From a virus, in the IMG/VR virus record IMGVR_UViG_3300045988_177552, positions 98,231 to 162,230 of that record: a stretch of 64,000 nucleotides of DNA; one strand, 5' to 3'. Within the stretch, counting starts at the first letter, position 1; each line of letters starts with the position of its first letter. Below the pieces are notes generated by a model. The model did not search any database. It saw nothing but the letters and a program-made list of their open reading frames with translations, and was not told where the DNA came from. Position numbers and translations under genes: made by a program. Positions 3,509 through 42,459 of the stretch are shown here, piece after piece.

Positions 3509-3729
3509 ACTTCTTTAAATTTGTTTTTAAAGTCCTCTCTTTCTCTGACATATATACTTCCGCCTAGTTCAGTATCCTGGTACATTACTGCCTCAAACCA
3601 TCTTCTTGTTGTTGGATCTTTAGCAGTACATAAGCCAAGAACTTTATATTTTCCATCATGACTTAATCCCGTCTTAGGATTAGGTGTTTGATCTCTGAAC
3701 TCCACTATGGTTCCCTTGTCTGTAATCAT
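3505..3729 (-). CDS. hypothetical small protein
   Basis: 74-aa ORF tightly packed between neighbours. Confidence 0.3.
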   Translation of the reverse strand: MITDKGTIVEFRDQTPNPKTGLSHDGKYKVLGLCTAKDPTTRRWFEAVMYQDTELGGSIYVREREDFKNKFKEV

Positions 3730-18030: not shown

Positions 18031-18774
18031 TTACTCTTTCCTTCCTACGCTATATATCTCATTTATTCCAAGACATCTATATCCAGTTTCTCCATAGTGA
18101 CCCGTCAGAGATTGATGATGGTGTCCATAAAACCACTGAGAACACCTTACTTCATACAAAACATGATCGAGATATCTCCTGGTATTCAAGACCTTTTCCC
18201 ATGTCTCATAAGCAACATCATCTCCTCTCATTGGAATAGGTAGGAAACTCATTGGGGCTTCATGTGAGACAACTATATCTACACGTGTAGGTAATCCCCT
18301 CTCTTTAACAATGGGACTTTCATTTTCCCACCAGACTCTTCTCCTTGAACCAAACCTGATTAATCTATCATTCTCCTGTCTCCTACTTCTGAGTCTTCCA
18401 TAACATCCGGGCTTATCTATATCTACTGACACAGCTCCGCCAACAGGATATATTAAGAATCCACATAGGGTCACAGGAATATGATCAGGCAGGAAATGAA
18501 GCCTGGAGTAATCATGTTCTCCATCAAACCAAGAAGGATCATCATGGTTTCCTCTGATTGTATAGAGAGTCAAGTTATTTTTCTCTAACTTATCCTTTAC
18601 TTTATCATAGAGGACATCCATTGACTTAGGACCACCAAACCCAACTCCGAAGTCTCCAACTATCAAGATATCAGAGTCCCTAACCTTTTTCTGAATCACT
18701 AAGGTATGCACTAAGAGTTTTAATTCTCCGTGTATATCTCCACAAATATATAAACATTTCTTTTCCATATTCAT
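18031..18774 (-). CDS. calcineurin-like metallophosphoesterase (Ser/Thr phosphatase-like)
   Basis: GDIHG, GDFGVGFG, GNHD motifs. Confidence 0.6.
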   Translation of the reverse strand: MNMEKKCLYICGDIHGELKLLVHTLVIQKKVRDSDILIVGDFGVGFGGPKSMDVLYDKVKDKLEKNNLTLYTIRGNHDDPSWFDGEHDYSRLHFLPDHIPVTLCGFLIYPVGGAVSVDIDKPGCYGRLRSRRQENDRLIRFGSRRRVWWENESPIVKERGLPTRVDIVVSHEAPMSFLPIPMRGDDVAYETWEKVLNTRRYLDHVLYEVRCSQWFYGHHHQSLTGHYGETGYRCLGINEIYSVGRKE

Positions 18775-20451: not shown

Positions 20452-21655
20452 ATTTTTCAGATATTTTAATGTTATTCTCTAAGATTCCCGATACCTCTAA
20501 GAACTTGTCAAGCGTTAGATCACAGTAATCATCGACCCAATCAGCAATATAATAGAGGCACCTACTGTCGGCCATAATTCCGAAAAGGATAGGGTCAGCC
20601 TTCTTTCTTCTTTCCTCCTCCTTCTCGTCCTTCGTTGCCTTATAGACTTTTCCATCCGGGTCATAGTGAAGAACGACATAGTTATCAAAGACATGGAGAC
20701 TATCTGCTTCAAGCTTCTTTTCCCTAACTTCCTTGGGAATTGGTCTTGAGAAGTTCTTGATATAACATAAAGATATTCCCTTCTCTGACAGCTTAATGAA
20801 ACTGACCATCTGAGCTTCTGTGATTCTTTTCTCAAATCCCTTTGACCTGAGGATGGATTCATACTTGACTGTAAACAACCTAGCCAACCATTTATCAACT
20901 AAGGCTGTCTGTCCCATCTCCTTAGCATCTTTCAGGGCTGCCAGGTAAGATCCAATACGTCCATAATAGTCATCAACTTCTTTCTGAGTCGTAAGTTTAA
21001 CCAAGTCAAAGAATTTAATGACATCCAACTTATAGACCTTTGGCTTTTCTTCCTTAGGATCTTTATCAGGCATCTCTTCCTCCTTTTTCTTTTCAGATTC
21101 AGAAGATTTCTTGAATACCTTCCCTAGGAGGCCTTTCATCCAACCTTTCTTTTCCTCTTTCTTATTGGATTGATAAAGATTCTCTAGGGCTTTCGCTGTA
21201 CTCCCCATGGTATTCCTGAAATTATCAATAGTATCAGTGTCTACTTCCTCCTCTATCCAGATCTGATCAGGTGTTACCAGTTTATATTGAGAGGCCATGT
21301 TCTTCGCTTTCTTCTCATCTACGAGGAAATTCAACTCATCAATAGACATAGCATCGAAGGCTTCTTGAGTAATAGTCTGTTGGGTTCTCATCCTTGCTAA
21401 GGCCTTTCTCTTTTCATAGGAATTGAATACTGAAACTTCCCTATCTTTAACAGCCCTATCTGAAGAGGAATAATCTTCTGTGACAGTTACGACACCATTC
21501 TTTCCTTCCTCAACTTTTTTCAAGATCGCATTATATTTCGGAAGGGTATAGTCAATCTCTACAGTTTCAGTAAAGATTCTGAGATATGACTGTGATCTAT
21601 CTAAGATTTCTGTTGCCATAGGCCTAAGCGACATCTTCGTCCAAGTGAAGCTCAT
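20441..21655 (-). CDS. hypothetical protein embedded in the NAD salvage operon
   Basis: 404 aa with K/E-rich linker; overlaps pncB and pncA ends (operon). Confidence 0.4.
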   Translation of the reverse strand: MSFTWTKMSLRPMATEILDRSQSYLRIFTETVEIDYTLPKYNAILKKVEEGKNGVVTVTEDYSSSDRAVKDREVSVFNSYEKRKALARMRTQQTITQEAFDAMSIDELNFLVDEKKAKNMASQYKLVTPDQIWIEEEVDTDTIDNFRNTMGSTAKALENLYQSNKKEEKKGWMKGLLGKVFKKSSESEKKKEEEMPDKDPKEEKPKVYKLDVIKFFDLVKLTTQKEVDDYYGRIGSYLAALKDAKEMGQTALVDKWLARLFTVKYESILRSKGFEKRITEAQMVSFIKLSEKGISLCYIKNFSRPIPKEVREKKLEADSLHVFDNYVVLHYDPDGKVYKATKDEKEEERRKKADPILFGIMADSRCLYYIADWVDDYCDLTLDKFLEVSGILENNIKISEKYEI

Positions 21656-22811
21656 ACTTAGCTATCTCAATCTCCTTAGGATCACCGATATGCTTTCCTT
21701 CATCATCGCTAATTTTGATAGTTTTCTCCCAAGGATCTTTAGCGCTCATCCTGACACGGCTAAGTTTCATCACGATATTGGCAGGCTTATAACCCTCAAT
21801 ATCAGGATCACAAGTAAGGTTAGTTCCTATACCAGCGGATACCTGAATTCTATTTCCAAAGTAGTCTCTAATAGTCTTATACTTCGGAAAATCAAGAGCA
21901 TTGGAGAATACCAAGAGCTTTGTCTTTGGATCTATTCCGAACTCCTCCAATCTCTCGATAATCATATTACCAATCTTGAAATTATCACCAGAATCAATCC
22001 TATAGCCCTGGAGAAGAAGTGCTTGTTGTCTTGTGAGGGTCCTAAGGAAAGACTTTGTTCCAAACAAGTCTGTCAAGGCTGTTCCCAAGTCTCCCTTATA
22101 GACATCAATCCAGGCTTCCAACATGAGATAGTTCGCCCTCTTATTGCCAAACATACCAGCATGGGCCTGAATCCACTCATGAGGGAATGTGCCAATAGGA
22201 GTCATGTCATACTTCATTGCATAGTACATATTAGACGTACCAGTGCAATAGATCGGACATCTCTCTTTGAGTCTTCTCACAACCTCATCCTGTACTAATG
22301 AGCTGAAACGCCTCCTTGTTCCAAACTCACTAAACTTAAGCTGGTACTCATTAGCGAAGTCAATCTTCTTGTCCAGCTTCCTTATAATATCTTGGATGTT
22401 AGCTTTCACACCAAGTCTAGCATTTCTCAACTCACTGACCGTATAGAGAACAAGGATCTCATACCAAGTCACCTTATAGAGACGGTCTGTAACTTCAATC
22501 TTCAATTCACCCGTCTCAGTCAAAGAAACTTGTATCCTCTTCGGCTCAAATCTGAATGTCTTAAGCCACTCCCAATACGGAAGGTCAATATACTTAATTC
22601 TCTTACTAACAAACTCAAATTCTTTGTCAGTCAATTTCAACATACCAGCCTTAGCGAATTCCAAGTTGAGAGCTTCTACAAATTTTTCATCGTAAGTCTC
22701 ATGGTTACGATCGTAGAATGTAAATGTTCCTTCTGCTAATGGATATAATTTCCAATAAGCAAATGATGTACTCGCTTTGTACAAATCAGTGTCTAAAATA
22801 CTTTGTATCAT
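21624..22811 (-). CDS. pncB: nicotinate phosphoribosyltransferase
   Basis: LDTDLYK, FGTRRRFS, GTSN, HEW, LVFSNALD, GIGTNLTCD blocks align with E. coli PncB. Confidence 0.8.
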   Translation of the reverse strand: MIQSILDTDLYKASTSFAYWKLYPLAEGTFTFYDRNHETYDEKFVEALNLEFAKAGMLKLTDKEFEFVSKRIKYIDLPYWEWLKTFRFEPKRIQVSLTETGELKIEVTDRLYKVTWYEILVLYTVSELRNARLGVKANIQDIIRKLDKKIDFANEYQLKFSEFGTRRRFSSLVQDEVVRRLKERCPIYCTGTSNMYYAMKYDMTPIGTFPHEWIQAHAGMFGNKRANYLMLEAWIDVYKGDLGTALTDLFGTKSFLRTLTRQQALLLQGYRIDSGDNFKIGNMIIERLEEFGIDPKTKLLVFSNALDFPKYKTIRDYFGNRIQVSAGIGTNLTCDPDIEGYKPANIVMKLSRVRMSAKDPWEKTIKISDDEGKHIGDPKEIEIAKYELHLDEDVA

Positions 22812-22910: not shown

Positions 22911-23504
22911 TCAAGAGAATTCGACTGATGTACTAAACCGAAGACCGTCTGAATAGAAATCATAGTATCCAGTGGGTTGATATCCTAAGGACCTCCAGAA
23001 GTTATCCCTCTCGTGATCATAATAATATCCATACTCCCTAGGATATTTCTTGTAATACATTTCCCCGTCAAGCATAGGTTCAGTTCCTTGCCATAATAGG
23101 GAGTCTCTTTCTACAGTCTCCTTAAACCAAGCCTCTTTGTCTAGATACTCTTCCTCGTATTCATCATAGAGTCTTACGTCAGGTCTCATAAGGAACCCTA
23201 AGATGCCCTCCTTGGTAAGATCATAATACTGTTTAATCCCCCAAGAACTGACATACCTCTTAGTTTCCGAATCATAGGATCCATTATTTACTTTCCAGAC
23301 ATTTGGGTTCCAGAGAAATTTCCATCCCCCAGATCTCTTTCCAAGATGAATAATGCCGCCTCTCCATTCATACTGCCCTGGTTCAGAATAAGTTAAAGAG
23401 ACTTCATCAACAATCTCCTTAAACTTATCCTCATCAATCAGTCGTTTTAGCTCCTCTTTCCTTTCTTTTGTTGGAATAATCCTTGCATAAAAATTAGTTC
23501 CCAT
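22911..23504 (-). CDS. hypothetical protein
   Basis: 197 aa, Y/W/E-rich. Confidence 0.4.
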   Translation of the reverse strand: MGTNFYARIIPTKERKEELKRLIDEDKFKEIVDEVSLTYSEPGQYEWRGGIIHLGKRSGGWKFLWNPNVWKVNNGSYDSETKRYVSSWGIKQYYDLTKEGILGFLMRPDVRLYDEYEEEYLDKEAWFKETVERDSLLWQGTEPMLDGEMYYKKYPREYGYYYDHERDNFWRSLGYQPTGYYDFYSDGLRFSTSVEFS

Positions 23505-23632
23505 AAGTCATAATGTTTTATTTGATTCACTAATAAGAGTTATGCGGTTTCTGGAGAGCAAAAAAATAGGAGGATACACATTCATCACGAACTTCTCCTC
23601 CCCAGAAAACACTTTAGTATGAACAAACGTTA

Positions 23633-24463
23633 CTAATTGCTAGTCGCCCACTCCTTGACTTCTTTGAGATATCCTGGAGTGAGTTCGATTATGTTAACGT
23701 GTTCCATATCACTTAACCTGTTGATTAAGATAGGGTTATGAATTACGGCAATTATCTGAGTATCTGGTCTATTCGTCTTAAGCACCCCTAGGAGGTCCTT
23801 TGAATATTTTATACTAAGATTTCTATCAGGTTCATCAAGAAGTATTGTTACTCTATTCTCTGTTTTCTCTGACCCTGGTAGATCATGTTTCTCGTAATAC
23901 TCTACAAGACTCTGGAACCTCTTACTCCAAACATCATTGCTTTCCTTTATGGCCTTCTTTATTCTCTCCAGAGGAAATTCTTTGGGAGCCTCTTTTCCGA
24001 ACATGAATTTGAAGAGAACACTAATAGAGTTTATCGTGGATTCTCCCGTTGAACCATTCATTCCGTTCATCTTAAGTTGAAAATTATGTATACTGTCAGC
24101 GAATTCGTAGTCGTTTATATCTGCCGACATCCTTAAGTTGAACGTTGGAAGTAAATAATCAGAGAATACATCAACTCCATCATTAAACCTGTCATCCTCT
24201 CCTCCCAATACATAGTCATCCCAGAATAGTCTTTTCAAGTGAAGTGTATCATTTCCTCCAGTCTTAAACTCTGAGCATAGATTCTTATCACACAACGTAT
24301 AAGAAGCTAGTAATTTCATTAGAGTTGATTTTCCAGAACCATTTTCTCCAATCACAATATTAACATGTGGCGTAAAATTAAACTCTTCACCACCTTTAAA
24401 TACTTTGTTACACCATGATATCGGCGTACTCTCAATATCTTTAATAATTACTTTTGTTATCAT
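23633..24463 (-). CDS. ABC/AAA_21-like ATPase
   Basis: Walker A GENGSGKST, Walker B ILLDEPD, H-loop IHNP. Confidence 0.5.
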   Translation of the reverse strand: MITKVIIKDIESTPISWCNKVFKGGEEFNFTPHVNIVIGENGSGKSTLMKLLASYTLCDKNLCSEFKTGGNDTLHLKRLFWDDYVLGGEDDRFNDGVDVFSDYLLPTFNLRMSADINDYEFADSIHNFQLKMNGMNGSTGESTINSISVLFKFMFGKEAPKEFPLERIKKAIKESNDVWSKRFQSLVEYYEKHDLPGSEKTENRVTILLDEPDRNLSIKYSKDLLGVLKTNRPDTQIIAVIHNPILINRLSDMEHVNIIELTPGYLKEVKEWATSN

Positions 24464-24673
24464 ACATTAATAAGAGTTTCCTGGGGACGAAAAAAAAAAA
24501 TCGGAGGAATGATCAAGGCTAAATTCACCTACCTTAATCACCCTCCTTTAATAATGCCTCTGTCATGGGATTATCGACATCAGCGCTCCAACCTGAGTTT
24601 ACCCGGGATGGGAACTCAAATTAATTCCTCATCAATAAGGACTTGAAGCCTTCCGGAGCGCGTTTTCTCCACA

Positions 24674-25069
24674 TTACAAGACAGAGACCATCCTCTCGAA
24701 CATCTTGTCAAATCCAGCTTGACATAATAGGAGTGAATAATTCCTAAATACAGCAGACCTAATCTTATATTGAACAAGTGGCAAGGATTCTCCAATATTC
24801 CAAATATCTAGCCTCCTCTGATCAGGGATGTAAGTGACAAACCCTATTGGAGCCTTCTTATAGTCTGGGGTGCAAATTGTATATCTATAAACCTTCTGTC
24901 CCTCAGCTACTTGAAGTTTAAGGCTAGTTGTCACATTGAAAACAGATTGAATAGCTCCAAACATTGCTTTCAACTTAAGGGACTCATTCTTATCGCTGAT
25001 ATCTTTGAAAAATACCATTGGATCACCTATATCCAGGTAATTGAGCCCCATATATCCGATTCCTAACAT
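24674..25069 (-). CDS. hypothetical protein
   Basis: 131-aa ORF. Confidence 0.35.
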   Translation of the reverse strand: MLGIGYMGLNYLDIGDPMVFFKDISDKNESLKLKAMFGAIQSVFNVTTSLKLQVAEGQKVYRYTICTPDYKKAPIGFVTYIPDQRRLDIWNIGESLPLVQYKIRSAVFRNYSLLLCQAGFDKMFERMVSVL

Positions 25070-25072
25070 AGC

Positions 25073-27835
25073 TTATTTCATTTTAATTCCAGTTATTCCA
25101 CCTTCGTTCAATTCCAACTTTAACGATTTATTGTTGAAAGCTGGGATAGAATCCATATGGCTGCTAAGGAGAGTTAAGCCGATATTCATTTGTCCTATCA
25201 TATCAAGGACTATATCATGATTTGAAGAATCTAGGTGTTTTAAGAATTCATCCATAATCAAGAGACCCATCCTAGTAACAACTTTGCTTAGGAAATCTAC
25301 ATCAAGTAACGTTCTCTGACCATCTGAACAATTAACATATCTCACATTATTTCCATTGAGATTATATGAAGATTCCAAGTTGAGATGATCTTTTCCTCTA
25401 AACGTTGTCTGTGTAACCTCATACTTTATCCTATTATCACTAAACTGATCTGCCAACCTTGTCATAATCTCTTTATAGATAATTCCTGTCGGTCCTGTCA
25501 GTTTAATGTAGGCTTGGTATGCTTCTACGGCCTTTGACATCTCTTGTAGGTGAGATTCGCAAGCCTGAATTTCCTCTAAGGCAGCTGTCCTATCTCTTAT
25601 TAAGGATTCATATTGGTCCCATGTCACCAAGTCCTTCTCTAGCTTCCCCATTGTCTCCATAAAATCCAAAGGCAACTCTACTTTCTCAGGTTGTGGCCCT
25701 ATACTTTCAATAGACTTCTCAACCTCCCCTAGTTTTGTCTCCTCAGAATTTTTCTCCCAGAGCAACCTATTATACTCATTGGTTTCAGAAATTCTCTTAG
25801 CTATCTCTGTTGACATCTGAGATATAAACCCTTTACAGCCAGAATCAATTTCCTGTTTATCCTGAATTCCGAAGTCCCAAAATTCCTGATAGAGTGAATT
25901 CTGCTTTCCAACCAAATCCTGAATCTGAGCATCAAGTTCAGCCTTATGTTGCTCTAAGTGTTCTCCTGGTTTGATAGGTTGACCACAGGAAGGACAGACT
26001 TTCTTTTTCTCCAAGTCCTGTCTCTCATAGTAAGCCTTCTTTCCAAGTTGTTTGATTTCATTCAACCTGGTCACAGCATTAGTCACCCAATCGAGCTTCT
26101 TATGATACTCATCTGTTTCTTTATTGATGACATCCAGGGGCCTAACGTTGGAGAGACTAGGGAGAATAATTTCAGTCAACCTCTTCCCTATCGATTCCTT
26201 CTGAGCTTGAAGATTTGCAGTCGTAGTCATGTACCTATTATAGGCCATCCACTTCTCTTGCATACTCTTCCCATATGCCTTCTTGGATTGGAGATCTTCT
26301 TTTGTAAGTTCGGGCAAGACTAGGGAATCCAACTTTCCATTTAAGTAAGTCAACAATTCTCCTGCCTTATCCTGTCTCTCCTTCCAACCACTACCTTGTC
26401 TTAGGTATTGCTCCAAAAGAATCCTCGCCTGATCATTATAAGCATCAATCCTATCCATCTTATAGAACCTACTTATGATCTCACTCTTCCTCTCTGGTGT
26501 TATGTCACCAATGAGCTTAGGATGATCTGAGTCAAAGAAGTAGACGTCCATGTAATCAATGAATGGGAACCTTACGTGCATATCTTTCTCAAAGTCTTTC
26601 TTGCAATTATACTTTTGAGGCTCTCCATTTATCCAGAAGCCATACCTCTTGGAACCTCTCTGAATTTTATACTGAGATCCTTGATATAAGAATTCTACCT
26701 CTGTCCAACACTCTTTAGTTCCAAATTGAATAAGATCCTTAGGGTGCGGATTCTCTAGGAAAGCATATTTCAAAGCACTAAGAAGAGAACTTTTACCTGA
26801 TCCATTCTCTCCTGTAACCAGTACCTTGTCCATATCCTCGAAAAAGAGCTCAACCTCATCTATACTTCTCCAATTCTTACAATAGAATCTTGTAATAACG
26901 AAATTGAAATCAACCTCTTTCGAATCAATGTCCTGAATATTCTGAATTACCTCACTATGAACTCCCTGAAGTGAGTTGGAAATGATTATATTATCCGTCA
27001 AGTGTTCAATCTCCTCCCAAGCTGGAATTTCAATATCCCTAACACCACCGGAAATAGATTGATTTGAAGGTTTATAAACACTCCAAACACCTGTCGAAGC
27101 ATTCCATCCTTCCTCATCCCGCTTATCTGTATATTGGAATTTCATCAAGTTATCATGAGGGTTCAGGTTTACCCATTTCCATGACTTCTTTTCCGGTTCC
27201 AAAATAATGCCAGTTGAATATTCACAGTCCGACATCTTACACCTCTGAGGAATTCCTATACTGACAAACTTTCCATTTTGTGCTGGTTTATGAATATCTC
27301 CACAAATAGCCAGGTCAAACTTAGTCTCATCTAAGATTTGTGAGTGGTAATTATCATCAGGGGAATAGGAAATAGTAGCATGAGTAAATAAGACATCAAG
27401 CTTTCCATTAATCCAGGATAAGTTAAATTCCGGTCTCCAGTTATAGAAGCCAATCCTACAACCGTCCACATTAATCTCCTTCATATCAGAGTAATAGAGA
27501 TTATGGGGCAACATAACACCGAGACAAGAATCCGAAAGTTCTGAATCTACTCCTTTATTATCCTGATCATGATTTCCTAAGATGAAATACCCAACCCTGA
27601 AATGCTCCATCAAGGTATCCAGGAACATCTTAACTTCGTTCTGGATATAAGGGCGGATAAGGAATTTCTCGATAATATCACCAGCCAAGACAATAATATC
27701 ACAACCTTCCTGTTCTCCAACCTCAATTATATTTTGACATACAGTTCTTGTTTGATAGAGTCTATACTTTTCCGACGGATTTCTCTGCGGATAGTCATAG
27801 ATATGTATGTCTGATATTGCAAGAATCCTACTCAT
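25073..27835 (-). CDS. fused Mre11/SbcD nuclease and Rad50/SbcC ATPase
   Basis: N-terminal phosphoesterase motifs (SDIHI, AGDI, GNHD); Walker A GENGSGKSS; long coiled coils with CPSCGQP zinc hook; C-terminal LLIMDEF Walker B. Confidence 0.65.
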   Translation of the reverse strand: MSRILAISDIHIYDYPQRNPSEKYRLYQTRTVCQNIIEVGEQEGCDIIVLAGDIIEKFLIRPYIQNEVKMFLDTLMEHFRVGYFILGNHDQDNKGVDSELSDSCLGVMLPHNLYYSDMKEINVDGCRIGFYNWRPEFNLSWINGKLDVLFTHATISYSPDDNYHSQILDETKFDLAICGDIHKPAQNGKFVSIGIPQRCKMSDCEYSTGIILEPEKKSWKWVNLNPHDNLMKFQYTDKRDEEGWNASTGVWSVYKPSNQSISGGVRDIEIPAWEEIEHLTDNIIISNSLQGVHSEVIQNIQDIDSKEVDFNFVITRFYCKNWRSIDEVELFFEDMDKVLVTGENGSGKSSLLSALKYAFLENPHPKDLIQFGTKECWTEVEFLYQGSQYKIQRGSKRYGFWINGEPQKYNCKKDFEKDMHVRFPFIDYMDVYFFDSDHPKLIGDITPERKSEIISRFYKMDRIDAYNDQARILLEQYLRQGSGWKERQDKAGELLTYLNGKLDSLVLPELTKEDLQSKKAYGKSMQEKWMAYNRYMTTTANLQAQKESIGKRLTEIILPSLSNVRPLDVINKETDEYHKKLDWVTNAVTRLNEIKQLGKKAYYERQDLEKKKVCPSCGQPIKPGEHLEQHKAELDAQIQDLVGKQNSLYQEFWDFGIQDKQEIDSGCKGFISQMSTEIAKRISETNEYNRLLWEKNSEETKLGEVEKSIESIGPQPEKVELPLDFMETMGKLEKDLVTWDQYESLIRDRTAALEEIQACESHLQEMSKAVEAYQAYIKLTGPTGIIYKEIMTRLADQFSDNRIKYEVTQTTFRGKDHLNLESSYNLNGNNVRYVNCSDGQRTLLDVDFLSKVVTRMGLLIMDEFLKHLDSSNHDIVLDMIGQMNIGLTLLSSHMDSIPAFNNKSLKLELNEGGITGIKMK

Positions 27836-28350
27836 AGCGTCAACATTATATTCCTATAATTATTCTGAACCCACAATAAAGCCGCATATACATGTTTACA
27901 GAGAAGCGTCGTTCCTCTCTTTCCGGTAGGGGCATCATTCAAGGCTGCTCCAAGGCTTAGCTTAGTCCAGTCATTTGCAAATAATGAATCCCTTTTATTC
28001 AAGAGATAGGCGGAACGATACTTGAAATCATTACAATCACAATATACCCTAATCTGATTTCCCATCCAATTACTATTTGTAAAGTCTGGTTCAAGTTGGA
28101 TAAGGACATAATGTGTGTTTCCTGTATCACTACTAACTTTCAATTTCAGAGTAAGATAACAAACTTTAACCGAGTTTCCCGTGAAGAGGCTTATAAACTT
28201 TGATGCTATAGATTCCTCTTTAATGGTGAAAAATGTATTAACCAAGGAGACAGAGCAAGATGATGCCCTACCCTGTCTTCCCTGATCTATATTCATTAAC
28301 TCGCCAATTGTGTATCTTCGTCCAAATATGCTACCTAATACACTAGCCAT
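27832..28350 (-). CDS. SWIM zinc-finger protein
   Basis: CDCNDF...CKHVYAALLW CxC..CxH pattern. Confidence 0.45.
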   Translation of the reverse strand: MASVLGSIFGRRYTIGELMNIDQGRQGRASSCSVSLVNTFFTIKEESIASKFISLFTGNSVKVCYLTLKLKVSSDTGNTHYVLIQLEPDFTNSNWMGNQIRVYCDCNDFKYRSAYLLNKRDSLFANDWTKLSLGAALNDAPTGKRGTTLLCKHVYAALLWVQNNYRNIMLTL

Positions 28351-28353
28351 AAT

Positions 28354-28584
28354 TTATTTTATTGAATTTATATCTACAACTGGTTTTATATGTCCGGCAG
28401 GAGTTAGAATTGAGTTAATATTCTTAAGCATTAAGCCTGAAAATATCGGCTCAGAATCTTTTCCATTGCCACAATATACTGGTTCTACCTGTGATTTCGG
28501 GACAAACATACCATTCTTAAAGGTTCTCTCTGTCTCTCTATCAAAAGAATAGGCATCACCATTTGAAGTTACAATCTCAATCAT
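28354..28584 (-). CDS. small hypothetical protein
   Basis: 76 aa. Confidence 0.25.
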   Translation of the reverse strand: MIEIVTSNGDAYSFDRETERTFKNGMFVPKSQVEPVYCGNGKDSEPIFSGLMLKNINSILTPAGHIKPVVDINSIK

Positions 28585-29633
28585 CTCTCACAGTATAATG
28601 AAGGGTTAAACCTACTGATGAATGTTGTAAAGAATCCATCACTAAGGCCTATCATCTTAAACCTATCACAGAACTCATGCCATTCCTGCAATGAACCGAG
28701 ACGTCCACAGGTAGGAAGGAGGTCTGTAATATTCCTCTTCGCCTCTTCTAATCTAGGATAATTTCCCAGGTTAAACGTTGAGAGCTGAAGATTAAACAGA
28801 TCAACATCATCAACATTGGTATAATCGCCTTCCAAGATCTGTTCGATTGTCTTTACAGGATCTGCATACTCCTTCTTGGTTCTCCTCATTTGATTATGTC
28901 CCATTCCCAAGGAGTCCATATAAGACTTGTAATTATAGAGGCTTAACTTACTCCTCAAGGTCTCAGGAATCTTATCATACATCTCCTCATACGTTATTGT
29001 GATAGGTTGTTGTCCTGACTTTGGAATCTTGAAAAACTCCATAGTAGGACTCAAGGCATAAGTAAGATCAGAATCCTGAGTGATAATGACGCTATGTTTC
29101 CTGTTTTCCTGATACAACATCATACTGGCCAGGTAAGCTAGGTTATCAAACTCCCAACCAGGAACTCCAAGCGATGGAAATCCAAAGTTCTTGAGCTCTT
29201 TAACCATACCCCACTTAGCATCAAACCTTACCTCATTCTTGTAAAGTTTTTCATAAGCCTCTTTCAGGTCCTCTTGAGAAACATCAGGATCTGCTTTCAT
29301 CTCCTCAAACTTCTCCTTGGTCATATAGGTATCCAGGGGGTTTGCTTTTCCTTTGTTGGAATCTATATCACCTCTAGAGTCTTTGTATGCACCTCCAAGA
29401 ATTTGAGTCGTGACATAACCCTTATCACCATCCCACCTGTCTAAGAGGAGGATATGTTTCTCAGCCGTAATACCAAAATCTCGTTGGACCTTGTTGAATG
29501 TGTATATACAGCTCTTTATCAGGTCTCCAGCCGTATACTCTCCCGCTTTCTTGTCCTTTGATACGCCATACATGTTCCTCTGCATTATATAGGAGAGGTC
29601 CCAGAATGCGTATTCATATTTACAATTGTTCAT
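28581..29633 (-). CDS. FEN / 5'-3' exonuclease-like (PIN-fold) nuclease
   Basis: acidic blocks LLLDRWDGD and IITQDSDLTYAL resemble T4 RNase H / T5 D15 active-site motifs. Confidence 0.45.
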   Translation of the reverse strand: MNNCKYEYAFWDLSYIMQRNMYGVSKDKKAGEYTAGDLIKSCIYTFNKVQRDFGITAEKHILLLDRWDGDKGYVTTQILGGAYKDSRGDIDSNKGKANPLDTYMTKEKFEEMKADPDVSQEDLKEAYEKLYKNEVRFDAKWGMVKELKNFGFPSLGVPGWEFDNLAYLASMMLYQENRKHSVIITQDSDLTYALSPTMEFFKIPKSGQQPITITYEEMYDKIPETLRSKLSLYNYKSYMDSLGMGHNQMRRTKKEYADPVKTIEQILEGDYTNVDDVDLFNLQLSTFNLGNYPRLEEAKRNITDLLPTCGRLGSLQEWHEFCDRFKMIGLSDGFFTTFISRFNPSLYCER

Positions 29634-29719
29634 CTTTATTATTATTTTTATAGTAAATAAAATGGTGGGAGGGTTCCATCCTATTAAGATTTCGCCTATC
29701 CCACCTTAATCAATTTCTA

Positions 29720-31024
29720 TTAGAAAGGCAGACCATTACTACCTGCTCCGAAATTGCTACCTGCAAACTGAGGTCTCTCGAAAGGAGCTGCTTGACCAGG
29801 ATTTGCAGAACCAGGAACTATTGGAGCTCCTGTAATTGCATCCAAGTGTGCAGCAGGTGCCTGACGGAAAGGATCATTATTCTTTGATGTAATATCCTGA
29901 CCATTACCACCTACAAAATTACTGTTTCCATAACCTCCTACTGGCTGAGCTGCCTGTTGTGCGGCTTGCTGTGCCATCTGAGCAAGAACGGGATCATTTG
30001 TAGCCTGGCCCCTAGTATCTGTAGGAGTCTGATTTGCCAAGAGCGTCTTATTAGTTGCTTCAATGGCCTCCTCAATACTAGTACCGTTAGCCTTTGCCAT
30101 TCTAGTTTTTGCGAGAATATCAGTCATAAACTCAATCGTCTCTGTGATGAGTGCCTTATTGAAAAGTCTACGCTGATCTGCAGGAACGGAATCATCTTCA
30201 CGACCTGCCTGCCAACCCAAGAACATTTGCACTGGATTCTGCATTAACTCAAGATCCTCCTCAGGAATTGTTACTCCATTGAGGTAATTCTCCGCATTGA
30301 GAGAATGACTAACCGAAATATTGAAACCCGGTGAATCAGATTTTGAGATATTGAACATTAAGAAGCCCTTACGACCGCTTGCATCACGGTTATAGACATT
30401 CTTAACCCAATCATCATCTCCAGCTGTGATACTTGTGTCAGAGATGCTTTCTCCAACAGTATCCATGAAACCCTTCGATGTTACTACCATGAGGGCACTA
30501 AAGTTCTGGCGGGCTACTTCACGTGTGTTTCCAACTGACCAATAGTTCATAACACGTGCCATAAACAGTGAATAGGTCTTACGACGAATAAGTCCACCAA
30601 TAGCAGGATTCATGACGTTATTCTTTGCGTCAAGTTCCTTATAAAGCTCCTCCCAGACTGCATAAGCCTGATCCAAGAGTGCCTCATCTGCTGCTGTCAA
30701 AGAGCTTACCTCACGACCCGTTGAAGGATCCTTGATTGTATAAGCATCTTTCGGCAGAAGCTTAATCCATGCTGAATACTCCTGAGGTGTACCATCTGAC
30801 ATCACATTCTTCCTAGGCATCTTGATCTCCCTCGTATTTTTCAACGATACATAAGGGAAGTCATTGATTACGCTAGTCAGAGGAAGCAATTGATACTTAC
30901 CAAAGTTAGCCTTAGCATTGGTGTACACTGTCTCAATAGCACGACGCTTTACGAATGAGGTCGGCTTTTTCTTAGGCGACATTGACTGAAGTCTCTCCAA
31001 GAATGTTTCTACTGAATTACTCAT
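29720..31024 (-). CDS. abundant hypothetical protein with Gly/Gln/Ala-rich disordered tail ending LPF (possible SSB-like)
   Basis: 434 aa, elevated GC and codon bias; 115-nt leader with strong promoter motif; tail resembles SSB linker and tip. Confidence 0.4.
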   Translation of the reverse strand: MSNSVETFLERLQSMSPKKKPTSFVKRRAIETVYTNAKANFGKYQLLPLTSVINDFPYVSLKNTREIKMPRKNVMSDGTPQEYSAWIKLLPKDAYTIKDPSTGREVSSLTAADEALLDQAYAVWEELYKELDAKNNVMNPAIGGLIRRKTYSLFMARVMNYWSVGNTREVARQNFSALMVVTSKGFMDTVGESISDTSITAGDDDWVKNVYNRDASGRKGFLMFNISKSDSPGFNISVSHSLNAENYLNGVTIPEEDLELMQNPVQMFLGWQAGREDDSVPADQRRLFNKALITETIEFMTDILAKTRMAKANGTSIEEAIEATNKTLLANQTPTDTRGQATNDPVLAQMAQQAAQQAAQPVGGYGNSNFVGGNGQDITSKNNDPFRQAPAAHLDAITGAPIVPGSANPGQAAPFERPQFAGSNFGAGSNGLPF

Positions 31025-31127
31025 AAATTAATAAATAATTGTTTGTTGTTAAACATAAATTTTTGTTAAATTCTCATTGAGGGCTACATATCATTAACAC
31101 AAAAATCAGATCATGCCCTCTTCTCTA

Positions 31128-31172
31128 CATTATTAAGATTTTGCCGGCTTCTGGAGTGCGTTTTCTCCATGG
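31128..31172 (-). promoter_or_regulatory. two-part promoter-like motif (full form) about 115 nt upstream of abundant gene 29720..31024
   Basis: cattattaagattttgccggcttctggagtgcgttttctcc; same composite at 48957..48997. Confidence 0.45.
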
Positions 31173-31238
31173 ACCCTTTAAAATCTTATATATGTGAAAT
31201 GAAAAACTTTATTATTAACTTTTTAAAATTAAATTATT

Positions 31239-32771
31239 ATGATTACTTACATTATTTGTGGTGTAGTAGCAGTGCTATTAGTAGTGTTAATCTCAAGTAG
31301 TTATGTCAAAGCTCCTCCCTCATTTGCCTTTGTAATCTCTGGTCTCAATAAAGAGCCTAGGGTACTCATTGGCAAGGGCGGATTCCGAGTTCCTGGATTG
31401 GAGCGCCTGGACAAAGTGTATCTTGGCCAAATCACAGTTGACGTTGATACCGAAGGAAGTGTTCCTACAAACGATTTCCTCGATGTCATTGTATCATCTG
31501 TCGCTAAGATACGTGTAGTCCAGACTCCGGAAGGTATTAGGTTGGCTGCTAAGAACTTCCTCAACATGACATCTGAAAAGATCTCTGAGCAAGTTAGAGC
31601 AACTCTCCAAGGTAACCTCCGTGAAATCATTGGAACTATGGACCTCAAATCTCTTAACATCAACAGAGAGGGATTCAGTCAGGCAGTTACGAAGAGTGCA
31701 ACACCAGACATGGACAAACTTGGTATTGAGATTCTTAGCTTCAATATCCAGAACATCAGTGATAAGGACGGCTTGATTCGTGATCTCGGTGCTGACAATA
31801 CTGCTAGCATCAGGAAGGCAGCCGCTATCAATAAGGCTAATGCTACACGTGATATCAAGATTCAAGAGGCAATCGCTGAACGTGAAGCAAACGAGGCCCG
31901 TGTTGAAGCTGATACTGCCATCGCTGAGAAGAATAATGAGCTTGAGCTGAAAAAAGCGGCCTTGAAGAAACAGTCTGATGCAGCAAAGGCAGAGGCTGAT
32001 GCAGCTTATGAGATTCAGAAGCAGATCCAGCAGAAGACTATCAACATCTCAAAATCAGAAGCTGAGATTGAATTGAAGAAGCAGCAACAGATCATCTCTA
32101 ATGAATCAATCAAGATTAAGGAGAATGAACTTACTGCAACAGTCAACAAACAGGCTGAAGCAGACAAGTACAAGACTCAGGTTAATGCAGAGGCTGAGCT
32201 GGAACAAAGAAAGAGAAAGGCTGAAGCTGAGCGTTATGAAAAGGAACAACAGGCTGCTGCTAGGAATGCAGAGGCTGACGCTATAAGGTACGCTCAGGAA
32301 CAGAAAGCTCTTGGTATTAAGGCAGAAGGTGAAGCTGAAGCCGCTGCCATAGAAGCTAAGGGTAAGGCAGAAGCAGCAGCAATTGAAGCTAAGGCAAAAG
32401 CTGAGGCCGCTGGTATGAAAGAAAAAGCAGAAGCATTCAAGCAGTACAATGATGCTGCTGTAACTCAAATGCTTATCGATAAACTTCCTGAGGTTGCCAA
32501 TTCTGTCTCAAGTGCTATCGCTGGCATCAAGGGTATCAATATCTACAGTGCCGGAGGTGGCGATGGCGAAGGAGCTATCGGTTCAGTATCAGGCAATGTT
32601 CCTGTAGTGATCAAGCAGGTTTTTGACACTATGGAGAGCGTTACTGGAGTTCCTATGGCTGAACTCGTCAAGGCTCATACAATCGAGGCTAAGACAACCA
32701 GGAAGATTCAGGTTGATGATGCCCTGGCTGAAGTAGCTGATGAAATACTTGAAAGCGCTAAGAAAAAGTAG
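31239..32771 (+). CDS. SPFH/band-7 flotillin-like protein
   Basis: N-terminal TM helix, SPFH core, long EA-rich coiled coil (AEAAAIEAKGKAEAAA repeats); elevated GC. Confidence 0.7.
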   Translation: MITYIICGVVAVLLVVLISSSYVKAPPSFAFVISGLNKEPRVLIGKGGFRVPGLERLDKVYLGQITVDVDTEGSVPTNDFLDVIVSSVAKIRVVQTPEGIRLAAKNFLNMTSEKISEQVRATLQGNLREIIGTMDLKSLNINREGFSQAVTKSATPDMDKLGIEILSFNIQNISDKDGLIRDLGADNTASIRKAAAINKANATRDIKIQEAIAEREANEARVEADTAIAEKNNELELKKAALKKQSDAAKAEADAAYEIQKQIQQKTINISKSEAEIELKKQQQIISNESIKIKENELTATVNKQAEADKYKTQVNAEAELEQRKRKAEAERYEKEQQAAARNAEADAIRYAQEQKALGIKAEGEAEAAAIEAKGKAEAAAIEAKAKAEAAGMKEKAEAFKQYNDAAVTQMLIDKLPEVANSVSSAIAGIKGINIYSAGGGDGEGAIGSVSGNVPVVIKQVFDTMESVTGVPMAELVKAHTIEAKTTRKIQVDDALAEVADEILESAKKK

Positions 32772-32889: not shown

Positions 32890-34764
32890 ATGAATGGAAG
32901 GTACGAAGACATTAATCAAATTGATTTGGTATTAAGTATGTTTAATCAATACCTATTCCAGGATTGTAAGAATAATATTGATGACTTGATATATTCTTAT
33001 CAGACTAATATGGCAACAAACGGCAATAGACTGGTAGAGTTACTCTTGGATTCAATAAAAAATTACACCCTGGATAATATTGGTTTACCATTATTTCAAA
33101 GCATCCTGGGGAGGTGTGGAAAAACTGGGCCTGAGAGTCAACAGATCATCAATAAGATCATAGAGTATAAGATGTACACTAAGGATCAGATTGAACCAAT
33201 GAAGAAATACGTTAAGGATATGATTGCTAAGACGTATATTCTCAGAGCTAATGATCGCTATAGTGATTCCCCTAGTGATTTCATAAACTACCTTAAGGGT
33301 GTAAACTTTAAATCTTCGGCTGTTGATTACTTGACATCTACGAAATTTGGAGATATAGATGTAAATTCAATCAAGGCGGAAGAACAAAACCAAGGAATTC
33401 CATCTTCTTTTGAGTGGATTAATCAAACTTTCCGCCCTGAATGTATGTATCCAAGGATGGGATTGTTCTGTGTTTCAATGCCTCCTGGTTGTATGGCAGG
33501 AGATACTGAGGTCTTTCTTGCAGATGGGACAGTAAAAACTCTGGAGGATCTCTATAAAAGCAAAAAGACAAATATTACGATCTATGCATGTGATGGAAAT
33601 GATCCAAAGGTTTCAGTAGCAGAGAATTGTCAGATCTCTAAGTACGTGAATTCCTGGTATGTAGTTGAGATTGATGGAAAGAAGGAATATAGGGTTACTG
33701 AAAACCACCCATTCCTAATGATAAACGGAGAATGGAAGAGGGCAGATAAGCTTGTTGAAGGTGATATTCTAATGACATTTAACTATAAGTCAGTAAATGA
33801 AAAAGTGATTCACACAATCACTAAGGTATATGTTGAGACCTTAAAGGAACCACAGCCAGTATATGACTTAGTAAATGTCGATCTCTATCATAATTATGCA
33901 GTAAAGTTCGACGAAACATCTGGATTCTTTAGCCACAACACTGGTAAGACCCTTTTCTGTATGCAAGAGTGTCTTTATATGTGCTTGAAAGGAAAGAAAT
34001 GTCATTATCTCTGTATGGGTGATATGACAGAATCCGACTTTATCATTCGTATGGCAGCTCAATATTTTGGAATCCCATTCTATGAGGCTAAAAGAAACTT
34101 CGATATCGTCTATGAAGAACTAAAGAAAGTCATAGGGGACAGACTTGAGATTACTTGTATTCCTGCCAGTGTTATTACAGTGGATGAATATATTGAATTT
34201 GTTAAGAGTAAGGACTATGATGTCTGTTTCTGTGATTATGATAGTCAGTTTAAATCTAATGTCTATACAGAATCAATGTACCTAACTTACGGTGATATCT
34301 ATGCTAAATTGAGTGAGCTTACGATACAGTATAAAAAACTAGTATTCATCTTAGCTCAGCCTATGAAAGCGTCTTGGTCTCTCCCTGTTATTGAAATTGA
34401 TCAGGTAGGTGAGAGTGCTAGGAAGATTCATGCCGTAGACTGGTGTTTGACAAGGGGACGTGAGCCTGGAAACTTGAATGGCTTGGGAATTTCTAAGATA
34501 GTTAAATCTAGACGTGGAGAGGAACAAGTTATAGATTACAATATTAGGCTGAACAACGGTAGATTTAAAAGTCTTCCTAGGGCAGTCTATGAGGATATCA
34601 AGCAGATTCCAGAAAAGAAAGACTATACAGAAGCTGAGATTGACAATATGATAAATAATTACCTTCAAGCTAGAGGACAGGTTCAGCAATCTATCAATAA
34701 TAAAATGGGAAATTCAGGAATAAACAATTCAGGACCTAATAGGAGAGGCGCGGCACCATTTTAA
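32890..34764 (+). CDS. RecA-fold replicative helicase (DnaB-like), intein-containing
   Basis: Extein junction restores PPG|TGKT Walker A; downstream VCFCDYDSQ resembles DnaB Walker B/DYLQ block. Confidence 0.55.
   Translation: MNGRYEDINQIDLVLSMFNQYLFQDCKNNIDDLIYSYQTNMATNGNRLVELLLDSIKNYTLDNIGLPLFQSILGRCGKTGPESQQIINKIIEYKMYTKDQIEPMKKYVKDMIAKTYILRANDRYSDSPSDFINYLKGVNFKSSAVDYLTSTKFGDIDVNSIKAEEQNQGIPSSFEWINQTFRPECMYPRMGLFCVSMPPGCMAGDTEVFLADGTVKTLEDLYKSKKTNITIYACDGNDPKVSVAENCQISKYVNSWYVVEIDGKKEYRVTENHPFLMINGEWKRADKLVEGDILMTFNYKSVNEKVIHTITKVYVETLKEPQPVYDLVNVDLYHNYAVKFDETSGFFSHNTGKTLFCMQECLYMCLKGKKCHYLCMGDMTESDFIIRMAAQYFGIPFYEAKRNFDIVYEELKKVIGDRLEITCIPASVITVDEYIEFVKSKDYDVCFCDYDSQFKSNVYTESMYLTYGDIYAKLSELTIQYKKLVFILAQPMKASWSLPVIEIDQVGESARKIHAVDWCLTRGREPGNLNGLGISKIVKSRRGEEQVIDYNIRLNNGRFKSLPRAVYEDIKQIPEKKDYTEAEIDNMINNYLQARGQVQQSINNKMGNSGINNSGPNRRGAAPF
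33490..33939 (+). other. mini-intein (150 aa, no endonuclease domain) inserted in helicase P-loop
   Basis: Block A CMAGDTEV, block B TENHPF, blocks F/G VYDLVNVDLYHNYAV...SGFFSHN followed by extein T. Confidence 0.7.
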
Positions 34765-34767
34765 ATT

Positions 34768-36153
34768 ATGGAAGAATTAATAAACAGCCCAGAGATGATG
34801 CTTAGACTAGATCTTGAAAAAGAAACCTACTCTAAGTATTATCACGACTTGGTAGACTACTGTAAAAACAAGTACCCAGGAAGAGATAAGTCTATTTATG
34901 TAGACTATCTTGAAGAGCATCATATTCTACCTCGGTGTATGGGAGGAAAGGATGAAGATAGCAACTTAGTACTAATGAACTATAGATGCCACGTCTTAGC
35001 CCATTGTTTACTATTTTTAATGGATCAAGACAGTAGAAGCTTGGCGAAAGCTGCTTGGTACATGTTATATACAGCAAATAACAATAGGGGAGGAAAGGAT
35101 ATAAATAGTTTAATATTAAGTTTCGAAAAATTTAAGGAAGAGTTATTTAATACGCTAAAGAAACCAATCGTATGTCTATCTTTAGATCTTAAGGTTGTAA
35201 AAATATACAAAGGAGTTCTAGAAATAAAAGTAGATGGTTTTTCTCCAAAACTTATGAGTCGAGTCCTAAAGAATAGGGAAATGCACAAAGGGTATCTGTG
35301 GGAAAGATTAGAAGATGTTGAAGATAAATATCCAGAAGAGATAAAAGAGTACTACAGAGACTTGGAAAATGGGAATGTTCGAACCATAAATAAAGATAAA
35401 ACTTGGATAAAAGAACAGACTACGCTGTACAGATCTCGATATAGACGAGGAAATAAGGGAAAAACCGTGGTTGGGTATGATGACGAAGTGTATTGTGTAT
35501 TTAATAATATATCCGTTGCCAAGAGACTAGGATTTTCTGCTTCAATTATAAGTTTAAACATAAACAATAAAGCTACAGTCAATAATGGGGGATACTCTTG
35601 GAAACTTATTAAATCAGATGACGACTTAAAAGATATCTCAAGTAGTAGAAAGAGAGTAGAAGAAATTCACCCTAAATCAAAAAGAGTTATCTGTTTTGAT
35701 AAAGAGAATAATAGAATTATTAAAATTTACAAAACACAAAAGGATACCGCAGCGGACGGTTTTGTTTATACTACTGTTTGTTCAGCTTTGGCAAGTGATT
35801 CTAGAAAATATTGTGGATATTATTGGTATCTAGAGTACGAATGGAAGGATAAAGATCTTCTAGAGGATTATAATAGAAGAGATGTTTTACCCGAAGTTAT
35901 TGTAAATAGGCCAAACGATCCCATAAAATTAGTTCAATTAAGTGAAAACCATAAGATTGTAAATGTATTTAGTAATCTACATGATGCTAAACCATTTGAC
36001 TATCGAGCATTAAGCAAGGTCCTAAAAAAGGAAGATAGGTTCTATAAAGGATTCTTTTGGTTTACAATGGATGAACTGAAAGTTAAATTTCCAAACATTA
36101 TAAAAGAATATGAAGAAAGAATTAAGTATAGTAATAACACTAGAAAAAATTAA
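34768..36153 (+). CDS. HNH homing endonuclease with repeated putative DNA-binding modules
   Basis: HHILPRCMGG...N...HVLAH HNH core; three repeats with G[YF]xW + acidic KYPEEIKEY-like blocks. Confidence 0.65.
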   Translation: MEELINSPEMMLRLDLEKETYSKYYHDLVDYCKNKYPGRDKSIYVDYLEEHHILPRCMGGKDEDSNLVLMNYRCHVLAHCLLFLMDQDSRSLAKAAWYMLYTANNNRGGKDINSLILSFEKFKEELFNTLKKPIVCLSLDLKVVKIYKGVLEIKVDGFSPKLMSRVLKNREMHKGYLWERLEDVEDKYPEEIKEYYRDLENGNVRTINKDKTWIKEQTTLYRSRYRRGNKGKTVVGYDDEVYCVFNNISVAKRLGFSASIISLNINNKATVNNGGYSWKLIKSDDDLKDISSSRKRVEEIHPKSKRVICFDKENNRIIKIYKTQKDTAADGFVYTTVCSALASDSRKYCGYYWYLEYEWKDKDLLEDYNRRDVLPEVIVNRPNDPIKLVQLSENHKIVNVFSNLHDAKPFDYRALSKVLKKEDRFYKGFFWFTMDELKVKFPNIIKEYEERIKYSNNTRKN

Positions 36154-41406: not shown

Positions 41407-42459
41407 TTAATTCGTCTCCGCTGATCCTGAAGCCTTCATAATAAGATCCTCAGTAATCAACAGGTAGGAGATACTATTATAATATTCACTACTATCGTTC
41501 GGAGTTATAATAAAGCTGAGAGGGAAATGTTTCTCAATCTCCTTGCAGAATGTCTCGTCCCCTAGGAGTTTCTTGAAAAGATATGCTCCACCTCCAAGCA
41601 TGACAAGATTATTGGCAGCATCAAGGAACTCTCCATATCTCTCTTCAATTAAGTTCAAGACATTAACGAAATATCTCTTAGTAAACTGATTAACTACCTC
41701 TGAGAGATTAACTTCACGTCCCCTACGCCTGAGAATTCCAGTATCTACAACGGTCTGAGCTTCCTTAATTGAAATTCTATACTCGAAATTCTTGTAGATA
41801 TAATCTGACATATCTCTAGCGATTACGATAATTCCTGTGTCGGGAAGTCCTATCGTAGCACCAACAGAAGACTTCCTATTAATCACAGAACAAAGATCAA
41901 CGGTGAGATAACCAATGTCTGCGATTACATAGGAGTCGAAATCATTAACCTTCGTTGCATTAGCTGCATTTTCCCTAATATTTGCTCCAAACTTCTGAAG
42001 TGTATACCTACTTGACATAGCCTGAGGAAGACATACGAAGAACTGAGAATCTGGAGAAATCATCAAGGCGTCGTATAAGGTCTGAAGGAGTAGATCTGCT
42101 TTCTTAACAAATGCAAAACTAAGTCCAATAGCTACCTTATCAAACTTTATATGTTCCAACTTCTTCAACATATAACTAACCCAAGCAGGATAAACAGCCA
42201 ACATATCCTCGAATGTCTCTAGGGGAAGGAGATAACTACGGGCCGTCCTAAGAGCAGAAGGACCGAGGAGGAACCAGTCTGCACCAAGTCTGAAAGTCTC
42301 ATCATTATCTGCTGTTGTTGGAGGTTCTGGAAGTTTGGCAGCAGCTGAAATAATCTTATCGCTAACCATCTTTCCATTCTCATCAATGTAAGTATACTTT
42401 AGTGCTGAATAACCAAGATCCAGCGCTAGAATTTTAGCTCTTTTTTCCATAACGTTCAA
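41407..42459 (-). CDS. actin-like ATPase (ParM/Alp family)
   Basis: phosphate-1 ILALDLGYSALK, phosphate-2 IADIGYLTVDL, adenosine LMLGGGAYLF. Confidence 0.6.
   Translation of the reverse strand: MNVMEKRAKILALDLGYSALKYTYIDENGKMVSDKIISAAAKLPEPPTTADNDETFRLGADWFLLGPSALRTARSYLLPLETFEDMLAVYPAWVSYMLKKLEHIKFDKVAIGLSFAFVKKADLLLQTLYDALMISPDSQFFVCLPQAMSSRYTLQKFGANIRENAANATKVNDFDSYVIADIGYLTVDLCSVINRKSSVGATIGLPDTGIIVIARDMSDYIYKNFEYRISIKEAQTVVDTGILRRRGREVNLSEVVNQFTKRYFVNVLNLIEERYGEFLDAANNLVMLGGGAYLFKKLLGDETFCKEIEKHFPLSFIITPNDSSEYYNSISYLLITEDLIMKASGSAETN

Follow-up and report, generated by a model that had tools for sequence, protein, structure and literature searches.

The 64,000-nucleotide stretch analysed here (positions 98,231 to 162,230 of the IMG/VR record IMGVR_UViG_3300045988_177552; hereafter the window) comes from an uncultured jumbo phage and carries on its minus strand a gene for a single polypeptide of 920 amino acids (aa), in which a nuclease of the Mre11/SbcD type is followed by an ATPase of the Rad50/SbcC type. 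According to the list of open reading frames (ORFs), the gene has an ATG start and a stop codon at 25073..25075. An AlphaFold model of its product, built on a 57-sequence alignment, has a mean predicted local distance difference test (pLDDT) value of 85.1 and a predicted template modelling score (pTM) of 0.56. The gene and its parts are arranged as follows:

25073..27835, minus strand: 920-aa Mre11/SbcD-Rad50/SbcC fusion gene
27221..27835, minus strand: Mre11/SbcD-type phosphoesterase (nuclease) core with motifs I-V, residues 1-205
27032..27214, minus strand: small beta domain located where Mre11 has its capping domain, residues 208-268 (AlphaFold model)
26918..27019, minus strand: nuclease-ATPase connector of three short helices, residues 273-306 (AlphaFold model)
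26456..26902, minus strand: Rad50 ATPase N-lobe with Walker A G342-S349, residues 312-460
26006..26455, minus strand: ascending coiled-coil arm, residues 461-610 (model helices 461-504, 512-562 and 567-610)
25985..25996, minus strand: CPSC zinc-hook motif at the coiled-coil apex, residues 614-617 (apex loop at about 611-624)
25496..25963, minus strand: descending coiled-coil arm, residues 625-780 (model helices 625-655, 660-664, 668-710 and 725-780)
25076..25495, minus strand: Rad50 ATPase C-lobe, residues 781-920 (785-919 in the AlphaFold model), holding the signature S837-Q840, the Walker B D862-E863, the D-loop and the H-loop H893

An earlier reading of the window, made from its letters without database searches (the sequence-only reading), had described the protein as a single-polypeptide Mre11/SbcD-Rad50/SbcC fusion with phosphoesterase motifs I-III at the N-terminus, a Rad50-type Walker A, coiled coils with a CPSCGQP hook and a C-terminal Walker B and D-loop. 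Motifs, domain families and conserved full-length fused homologs all support this description. Motifs I-III are represented by D9-x-H11, G52-D53 and G87-N-H89-D90, and they are followed by H152 and by motif V, G179-D-I-H182. The Walker A reads G342ENGSGKS, and the C-lobe contains the signature S837-D-G-Q840, the Walker B L858LIMDE863, the D-loop and the H-loop histidine H893. In the model, two antiparallel coiled-coil arms of approximately 150 residues each (pLDDT mostly 80-90) lie between the two ATPase lobes, with C614-P-S-C617 in the loop joining both arms at the apex, and the connector is formed by helices at residues 273-286, 290-299 and 303-306.

Motif conservation was followed in an alignment of 16 sequences that includes four cultured-phage proteins (22-24% identity) and reaches down to 22% identity, and in a second alignment of 57 sequences. 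Residues D9, H11, G52, D53, G87, H89, H152 and G179-D180-I181-H182 of the nuclease part are invariant in all 16 sequences, and N88 is replaced, by Gln, only in two distant members. In the ATPase part the Walker A glycines, K348, S349, S837, G839, D862, E863 and H893 are invariant as well. The catalytic histidine of motif III (H89) and the hook cysteines C614 and C617 are invariant in both alignments; the hook was counted by its CxxC motif and apex position, and zinc binding is predicted.

In regard to domain families, the search with domain hidden Markov models placed Pfam Metallophos at residues 3-184 (E 5.6e-12) and both SMC_N (E 7.8e-11) and AAA_29 from residue 314, all above the Pfam cut-offs. 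PHROGs added a metallophosphoesterase family over residues 3-93 and the SbcC-like phrog_77 over residues 295-915 (E 1e-28), and NCBIfam returned Rad50, RecF and SbcD, all below threshold. A profile of the nuclease part (residues 1-311), made from cultured-phage proteins and those of the clade to which the window belongs, was searched against all PDB sequences. It matched significantly only Mre11/SbcD proteins, namely Pyrococcus furiosus Mre11 (2.3e-7), E. coli SbcD (1.7e-5) and Thermotoga maritima Mre11, and also reached the mycobacterial MPE nuclease at E 0.012. Since significance was confined to Mre11/SbcD, the N-terminal domain is Mre11/SbcD-like rather than a generic phosphoesterase. Structural comparison agrees with this assignment: matches of the nuclease fold to Mre11/SbcD aligned 233-251 residues, whereas unrelated metallophosphoesterases, to which the domain is less near, aligned over 150-229 (mostly no more than 202). 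The top PDB match of the whole model in Foldseek was Rad50 of C. thermophilum (E 4.9e-17), and among SMC-like ATPases the fold is nearest to Rad50/SbcC. The N-terminal domain is thus a Mre11/SbcD-type nuclease, and the C-terminal part is a bipartite ABC ATPase of the Rad50 type.

A long ORF of this kind could also be produced by a sequencing or assembly frameshift that joins adjacent Mre11-like and Rad50-like genes at their junction. The separate nuclease and ATPase genes of T4 speak for such an artefact, as do a few short relatives, of which P0206 covers only positions 1-311 of the profile, P0196 positions 1-405 and P0182 positions 419-917. The check for a frameshift at the fusion point, proposed with the sequence-only reading, was run with related genomes, and the homologs proved to be fused rather than split into two genes. 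The best 120 homologs in a collection of 5.8 billion proteins come from independent samples, are 49-99% identical to the window protein and 906-942 aa long, and all contain both Metallophos and SMC-type head domains; many of them sit on contigs of 270-400 kb, and the automatic names given by the Joint Genome Institute (JGI) to two of them cite an SbcCD ATPase subunit plus a nuclease or phosphatase. A HMMER search over 1.84 billion cluster representatives found 284 proteins (50%-identity clusters) at E<=1e-30, and about 130 of the best 150 representatives are at least 814 aa long and match end to end. Among cultured phages, a nucleotide search with the region gave no match, and tblastn found 12 records covering at least 80% of the 920-aa query in a single in-frame piece. 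In five cultured lineages the protein is annotated as one coding sequence (CDS). Furthermore, the connector itself is conserved, with H293 and F312 invariant and D309 nearly so in the 16-sequence alignment, and the genes of the short relatives are broken: their frameshifts fall at differing positions, and their contigs are short or of low coverage. The artefact is refuted by the conservation of the fused homologs, and we leave it a practically negligible probability; the fusion is genuine and conserved.

Three apparent split versions were inspected and rejected. Rhizobium phage RHph_TM39 (L011, MN988559.1 89177-96687) has CDSs annotated as 'DNA repair exonuclease subunit 1' and 'recombination endonuclease', in which the fused gene can be recognised, partly duplicated in tandem, in a partial genome: a first copy of residues 1-487, 99.8% identical to phage RHph_TM61, is followed by a near-complete second copy, and the duplication is probably an assembly chimera. 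The gene of P0206 (L013, 417..2314) has a deletion of about 30 codons and a frameshift near the domain junction, and that of P0196 (L014, 5001..6621) has several frameshifts around codons 405-460. Both of these disrupted genes are either pseudogenes or low-coverage assembly errors.

The architecture itself is not new. Mre11/Rad50 fusions were reported in 2011 by Yoshida, Claverie and Ogata (Virol J 8:427, PMC3175470), who found them in Mimivirus (R555), in a Bacillus phage, in plasmids of clostridia and Deferribacter and in several eukaryotes, with many homologs in aquatic viral metagenomes. They argued for recurrent, independent fusions, pointed out that the order from N- to C-terminus agrees with the geometry of the T. 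maritima complex, and suggested that the fused versions in cellular organisms may differ in role from the canonical Mre11-Rad50 (MR) complex. The 920-aa protein belongs among these natural fusions by its single-polypeptide architecture. Likened by description, not by sequence comparison, R555-type proteins have the same N-terminal Mre11-like nuclease and C-terminal Rad50-like ATPase in one chain; both types occur in viruses, phages and plasmids and are abundant in viral metagenomes, and in each case the fused copy seems to be the only one in the virus. The sole phage example of 2011, from Bacillus phage 0305phi8-36, is partial and lacks one P-loop segment and the capping/helix-loop-helix part (PMC3175470), whereas the window family is complete, has the hook, and comes from uncultured phages with contigs of up to about 400 kb; phage 0305phi8-36 was not among the tblastn matches of the 920-aa protein in cultured phages. 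Full-text literature searches found no paper after 2011 on natural Mre11-Rad50 fusions. The fused architecture is widespread in phages, and the window protein is a further well-defined member.

The closest counterparts from cultured phages are the following:

Ralstonia phage RP13: BCG50154.1
Acinetobacter phage Ab1-TPeters: XTJ53578.1
E. coli phage vB_EcoM_IME392: AXY86089.1
Rhizobium phage RHph_TM61: QIG77826.1
Vibrio phage 150E35-1: CAH9017181.1

These proteins are 22-25% identical to the window protein and of similar length (921-959 aa against 920), and in the first four of them 98-99% of the query aligned in one piece. They share its domain order and invariant motifs, including GDIH, H293 and CxxC. 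On the other hand, they keep the Q-loop Gln where the window family has Ser, and none of them has an annotated SWIM-like gene immediately upstream, unlike the window protein. Their annotations ('SMC family ATPase', 'SbcC-like subunit', 'recombination endonuclease' and 'hypothetical') leave the fusion unremarked.

Two-polypeptide systems offer a more distant comparison. T4 gp47/gp46 is likewise a phage-encoded MR nuclease with short coiled coils, and its gene order, 47 then 46, equals the domain order of the fusion. As the sequence-only reading had stated for T4-like phages, T4 encodes nuclease and ATPase separately, unlike the single gene of the window; two small ORFs lie between genes 47 and 46. 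Profile alignment with hhalign related the nuclease core to gp47 (probability 92%, E 6.5e-7) and the ATPase N-lobe to gp46 (probability 99%), but motif V reads GHFH in gp47 and GDIH in the window protein. T4 gave no tblastn match to the 920-aa protein at E<=1e-5, and the fused family therefore represents a lineage distinct from gp46/47. E. coli SbcCD and the archaeal and eukaryotic Mre11-Rad50 complexes are also formed by two polypeptides, with 12-18% sequence identity to the window protein. They are tethered by the helix-loop-helix of Mre11 on the base of the Rad50 coiled coil, and their coiled coils are much longer than those of the window protein. In the window family the connector, measured from the capping-like domain to the Rad50 start, is short (about 45 residues), and its helices 273-306 could, judging from the model, possibly be a remnant or equivalent of that helix-loop-helix. 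The invariant H293 lies within it (codon 293 at 26957..26959) and is shared by all fused proteins compared, down to 22% identity; we know of no Mre11 or Rad50 motif that matches it.

The genes that surround the fusion gene, together with a helicase-like gene and the ORF after it, are these:

29720..31024, minus strand: conserved 434-aa protein with SSB-like layout (alignment of 5 sequences)
28581..29633, minus strand: probable FEN / 5'-3' exonuclease-like protein, 350 aa (weak family matches)
28354..28584, minus strand: conserved 76-aa protein, between the FEN-like and SWIM-like genes
27832..28350, minus strand: SWIM-like zinc-finger protein, 172 aa; its stop overlaps the fusion-gene start (ATGA)
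24674..25069, minus strand: conserved 131-aa protein, 3 nucleotides downstream of the fusion gene
23633..24463, minus strand: stand-alone ABC-type ATPase, 276 aa, two genes downstream of the fusion gene
32890..34764, plus strand: intein-containing replicative-helicase-like ORF, 624 aa (Pfam Intein_splicing at residues 208-350, E 4.4e-10)
34768..36153: HNH-endonuclease ORF, after the intein-containing helicase ORF

A large part of this order is conserved. Five relatives, with fusion proteins 47-75% identical to that of the window, have upstream a gene for a 411-443-aa protein, the FEN-like gene, a gene for 76-81 aa and a SWIM-like gene for 170-177 aa, followed by the fusion gene. In the four relatives with downstream sequence, the fusion gene is followed by a variable gene and then by a gene of about 131 aa. 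Four relatives encode a homolog of the 76-aa protein in the same position (31-64% identity), and four have one of the 131-aa protein after the fusion gene (32-60%); Pfam, PHROGs and PADLOC gave no family match for either. Topoisomerase II genes lie upstream in two relatives (L009 and L010). Among the cultured phages, Ab1-TPeters and IME392 have a gene annotated as a 5'-3' exonuclease or Pol I-like protein directly upstream of the fused gene, and a helicase gene and topoisomerase II genes near it. A scan of 23000..31500 for promoters and terminators gave no excess over shuffled sequences.

The sequence-only reading had named three of the upstream genes. The supposed SWIM protein does carry the CxCxnCxH signature (C104-x-C106 ... 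C151-x-H153), with an unusually long spacer of 44 residues; in 36 sequences of its family C151 and H153 never vary, and at least 90% have C104 and C106. Its Pfam SWIM (PF04434) score, on the other hand, stays below the threshold (15.9 bits against 19.6, E 0.0098), the family profile had no match among PDB sequences, and none of the 41 detectable members, all from the window clade, has a precomputed Pfam domain. The model (pLDDT 82, pTM 0.79) places CxC where a strand ends and CxH where the last helix begins. SWIM zinc-finger proteins such as ZSWIM8 and Shu2/Sws1 (PF04434) are the closest known kind, and SWIM-like is a fair label for what is a candidate member of that family.

The nuclease proposed at 28581..29633 is an ORF on the same strand, with family matches that agree with the label yet are weak: Pfam 5_3_exonuc_N (PF02739) reached E 0.024 and 14.8 bits against a cut-off of 34.3, the only PDB matches of its profile were 5' nuclease chains of Pol I, FEN and Xni at E 0.04-0.8, and homologs in L009, L010 and L014 gave the same family weakly or faintly. 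A FEN / 5'-3' exonuclease-like protein is probable. Likewise, the 434-aa protein, on the same strand, has a layout resembling that of bacterial SSB, with a conserved globular part of about 345 aa, a variable low-complexity tail rich in Gly, Gln and Pro, and an invariant PF at the C-terminal tip (LPF in four of the five sequences, the window included, and MPF in L009). No homolog of known function was detected for it in Pfam, PHROGs, NCBIfam, PDB sequences (by profile) or cultured phages (by tblastn).

Taken together with its motifs, the conserved context of FEN-like, helicase and topoisomerase II genes supports a role in replication and recombination, and the gene probably encodes a self-contained, ATP-dependent nuclease of the Mre11-Rad50 (SbcDC) type, acting on DNA ends and hairpins within a jumbo-phage replication-recombination module. 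Nuclease-ATPase fusions are also common among defence systems, and the protein could instead be part of a conflict system of the SMC/ABC-nuclease kind (resembling Lamassu, OLD or Gabija), which would serve the phage in defence, anti-defence or superinfection exclusion. PADLOC indeed gave matches to LmuB (E 2.2e-18) and mad3 (E 1.1e-18), with weaker ones to AriA, PtuA and GajA, and a PtuA/GajA-like ATPase of 276 aa lies two genes downstream. These matches are nevertheless weaker than that to the SbcC-like phrog_77, so that the best match is not a defence model. Most of them are limited to the shared ABC Walker-A head region, and the longer ones (LmuB, mad3, AbiLi and PbeC) fall entirely inside the Rad50-like ATPase/coiled-coil part, while the nuclease is specifically Mre11/SbcD-like and the CxxC hook is present. 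The replication module is conserved, with the FEN-like gene and with topoisomerase II or helicase genes in distant phages, and of the flanking genes scanned with PADLOC only the non-conserved 276-aa ATPase matched any defence model, its matches being of the generic ATPase-head kind. A defence function was therefore rejected, and we regard it as improbable. The 276-aa ATPase itself, which resembles the defence-system ATPases mad3, AriA, PtuA and GajA (E 1e-10 to 1e-12), was also rejected as a partner of the fusion protein; it has no homolog among the fusion-flanking genes of the four relatives compared and is for that reason probably a variable accessory gene.

Several points weigh against the nuclease interpretation. 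Motif V is GDIH in all 16 sequences instead of GHxH, with Asp in place of His as one metal ligand, and S436 (followed by the conserved D437-H438) aligns with the Q-loop Gln of the cultured-phage fused proteins. The pTM of 0.56 makes the relative placement of nuclease and head in the model unreliable, and the equivalence of the connector to the Mre11 helix-loop-helix is putative. The biological role is drawn from gene context, and our literature searches found no biochemical or genetic characterisation of any member of the fused family. The first two of these points would also suit an SMC-like protein that chiefly tethers DNA in a structural role, its nuclease domain being inactive or acting as a non-nuclease phosphoesterase, and the different roles suggested for cellular fused versions by Yoshida et al. 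(PMC3175470) point in the same direction. Against such a protein, the catalytic His of motif III and the remaining metal ligands do not vary even between deeply divergent sequences, the invariance of GDIH itself argues for selection on the active site, and the ATPase motifs are intact. T4 gp46 also lacks Gln at the aligned position, and the Q-loop Ser is therefore counted neither for nor against activity. In addition, neither a further Mre11 gene nor a further Rad50 gene turned up in the 64-kb window, the whole genome being probably larger than 300 kb. A mainly tethering role appears very improbable, and an active MR nuclease is preferred.

By analogy with the solved Mre11-Rad50 and SbcCD complexes, such a nuclease would work as a homodimer of two chains joined through their nuclease domains, equivalent to M2R2. 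ATP would engage the heads, the Walker A of each chain facing the signature motif of its partner, and the four hook cysteines of two chains would bind one Zn2+. Binding and hydrolysis of ATP would toggle the head between a closed and a cutting state, so that DNA ends and hairpins would be trimmed or opened, and the covalent link would replace the tethering by the Mre11 helix-loop-helix on the base of the Rad50 coiled coil. T4 gp46/47 acts in recombination-dependent replication and in the degradation of host DNA. Gene context and this parallel suggest that the fusion protein could process ends for recombination-dependent replication together with the FEN-like 5' nuclease and the SSB-like protein, and possibly degrade host DNA as well.

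The phage family of which the fusion is a member is large and diverse, with 284 50%-identity clusters at E<=1e-30, and has hardly been annotated. Studies of MR structure and mechanism would have a convenient minimal system in such a single-chain Mre11-Rad50, which combines short arms, all catalytic motifs and a hook with a covalent tether and poses no stoichiometry problem, and the cultured relatives among Acinetobacter, E. coli, Ralstonia and Rhizobium phages would permit genetics. For the biology, little is added beyond the proposals of 2011, save the possible SWIM-like cofactor.

The SWIM-like protein, whose gene is translationally coupled to the fusion gene, may serve the nuclease as a cofactor. 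It is conceivable, although rather unlikely, that the fused Mre11-Rad50 of the window clade is a multi-subunit machine with clade-specific cofactors (the SWIM-like protein and perhaps the 76-aa and 131-aa proteins), with PF tips maybe leading to a common hub. By analogy, such cofactors could target or license the nuclease, as do eukaryotic Nbs1/CtIP or the SWIM protein Shu2/Sws1. To our knowledge, no prokaryotic or phage MR complex needs a dedicated third subunit, and a dedicated cofactor role of the SWIM-like protein is, as a conjecture, the one possibly new element. Bacterial SSB tails recruit partners and end in the tip 'DDDIPF'. The helicase-like ORF at 32890..34764 ends in '...GAAPF' and, with the 434-aa protein, is one of only two window ORFs of at least 100 aa that end in PF; the tip common to both may, again by analogy, be a shared docking peptide.

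Other features of the module and its surroundings vary. GIY-YIG / NUMOD homing-endonuclease-like genes are inserted between the 434-aa-type and FEN-like genes of some relatives (L005 7140..8183, L006 1831..2874 and L007 6752..7855), with no counterpart in the window, and in other relatives a further gene, of 114 aa, separates the SWIM-like gene from the fusion gene. Related contigs reach 350-400 kb. Besides a NAD-ligase-like protein and the intein-containing helicase, the window encodes an unusual set of cellular-type proteins, namely ClpB-like and FtsH-like AAA proteins, GroEL, flotillin/SPFH, a MreB/ParM-like actin, NAPRTase and IMPDH/GMP reductase (3726..6470, 10378..12507, 47017..48642, 31239..32771, 41407..42459, 21624..22811 and 53763..54794). 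It also contains a stand-alone metallophosphoesterase of 247 aa (18031..18774, minus strand; Pfam Metallophos E 1.7e-10), which lacks both an SMC-like partner and significant similarity to the Mre11-like domain. In the relative L009, a Metallophos gene adjoins an M42 peptidase gene.

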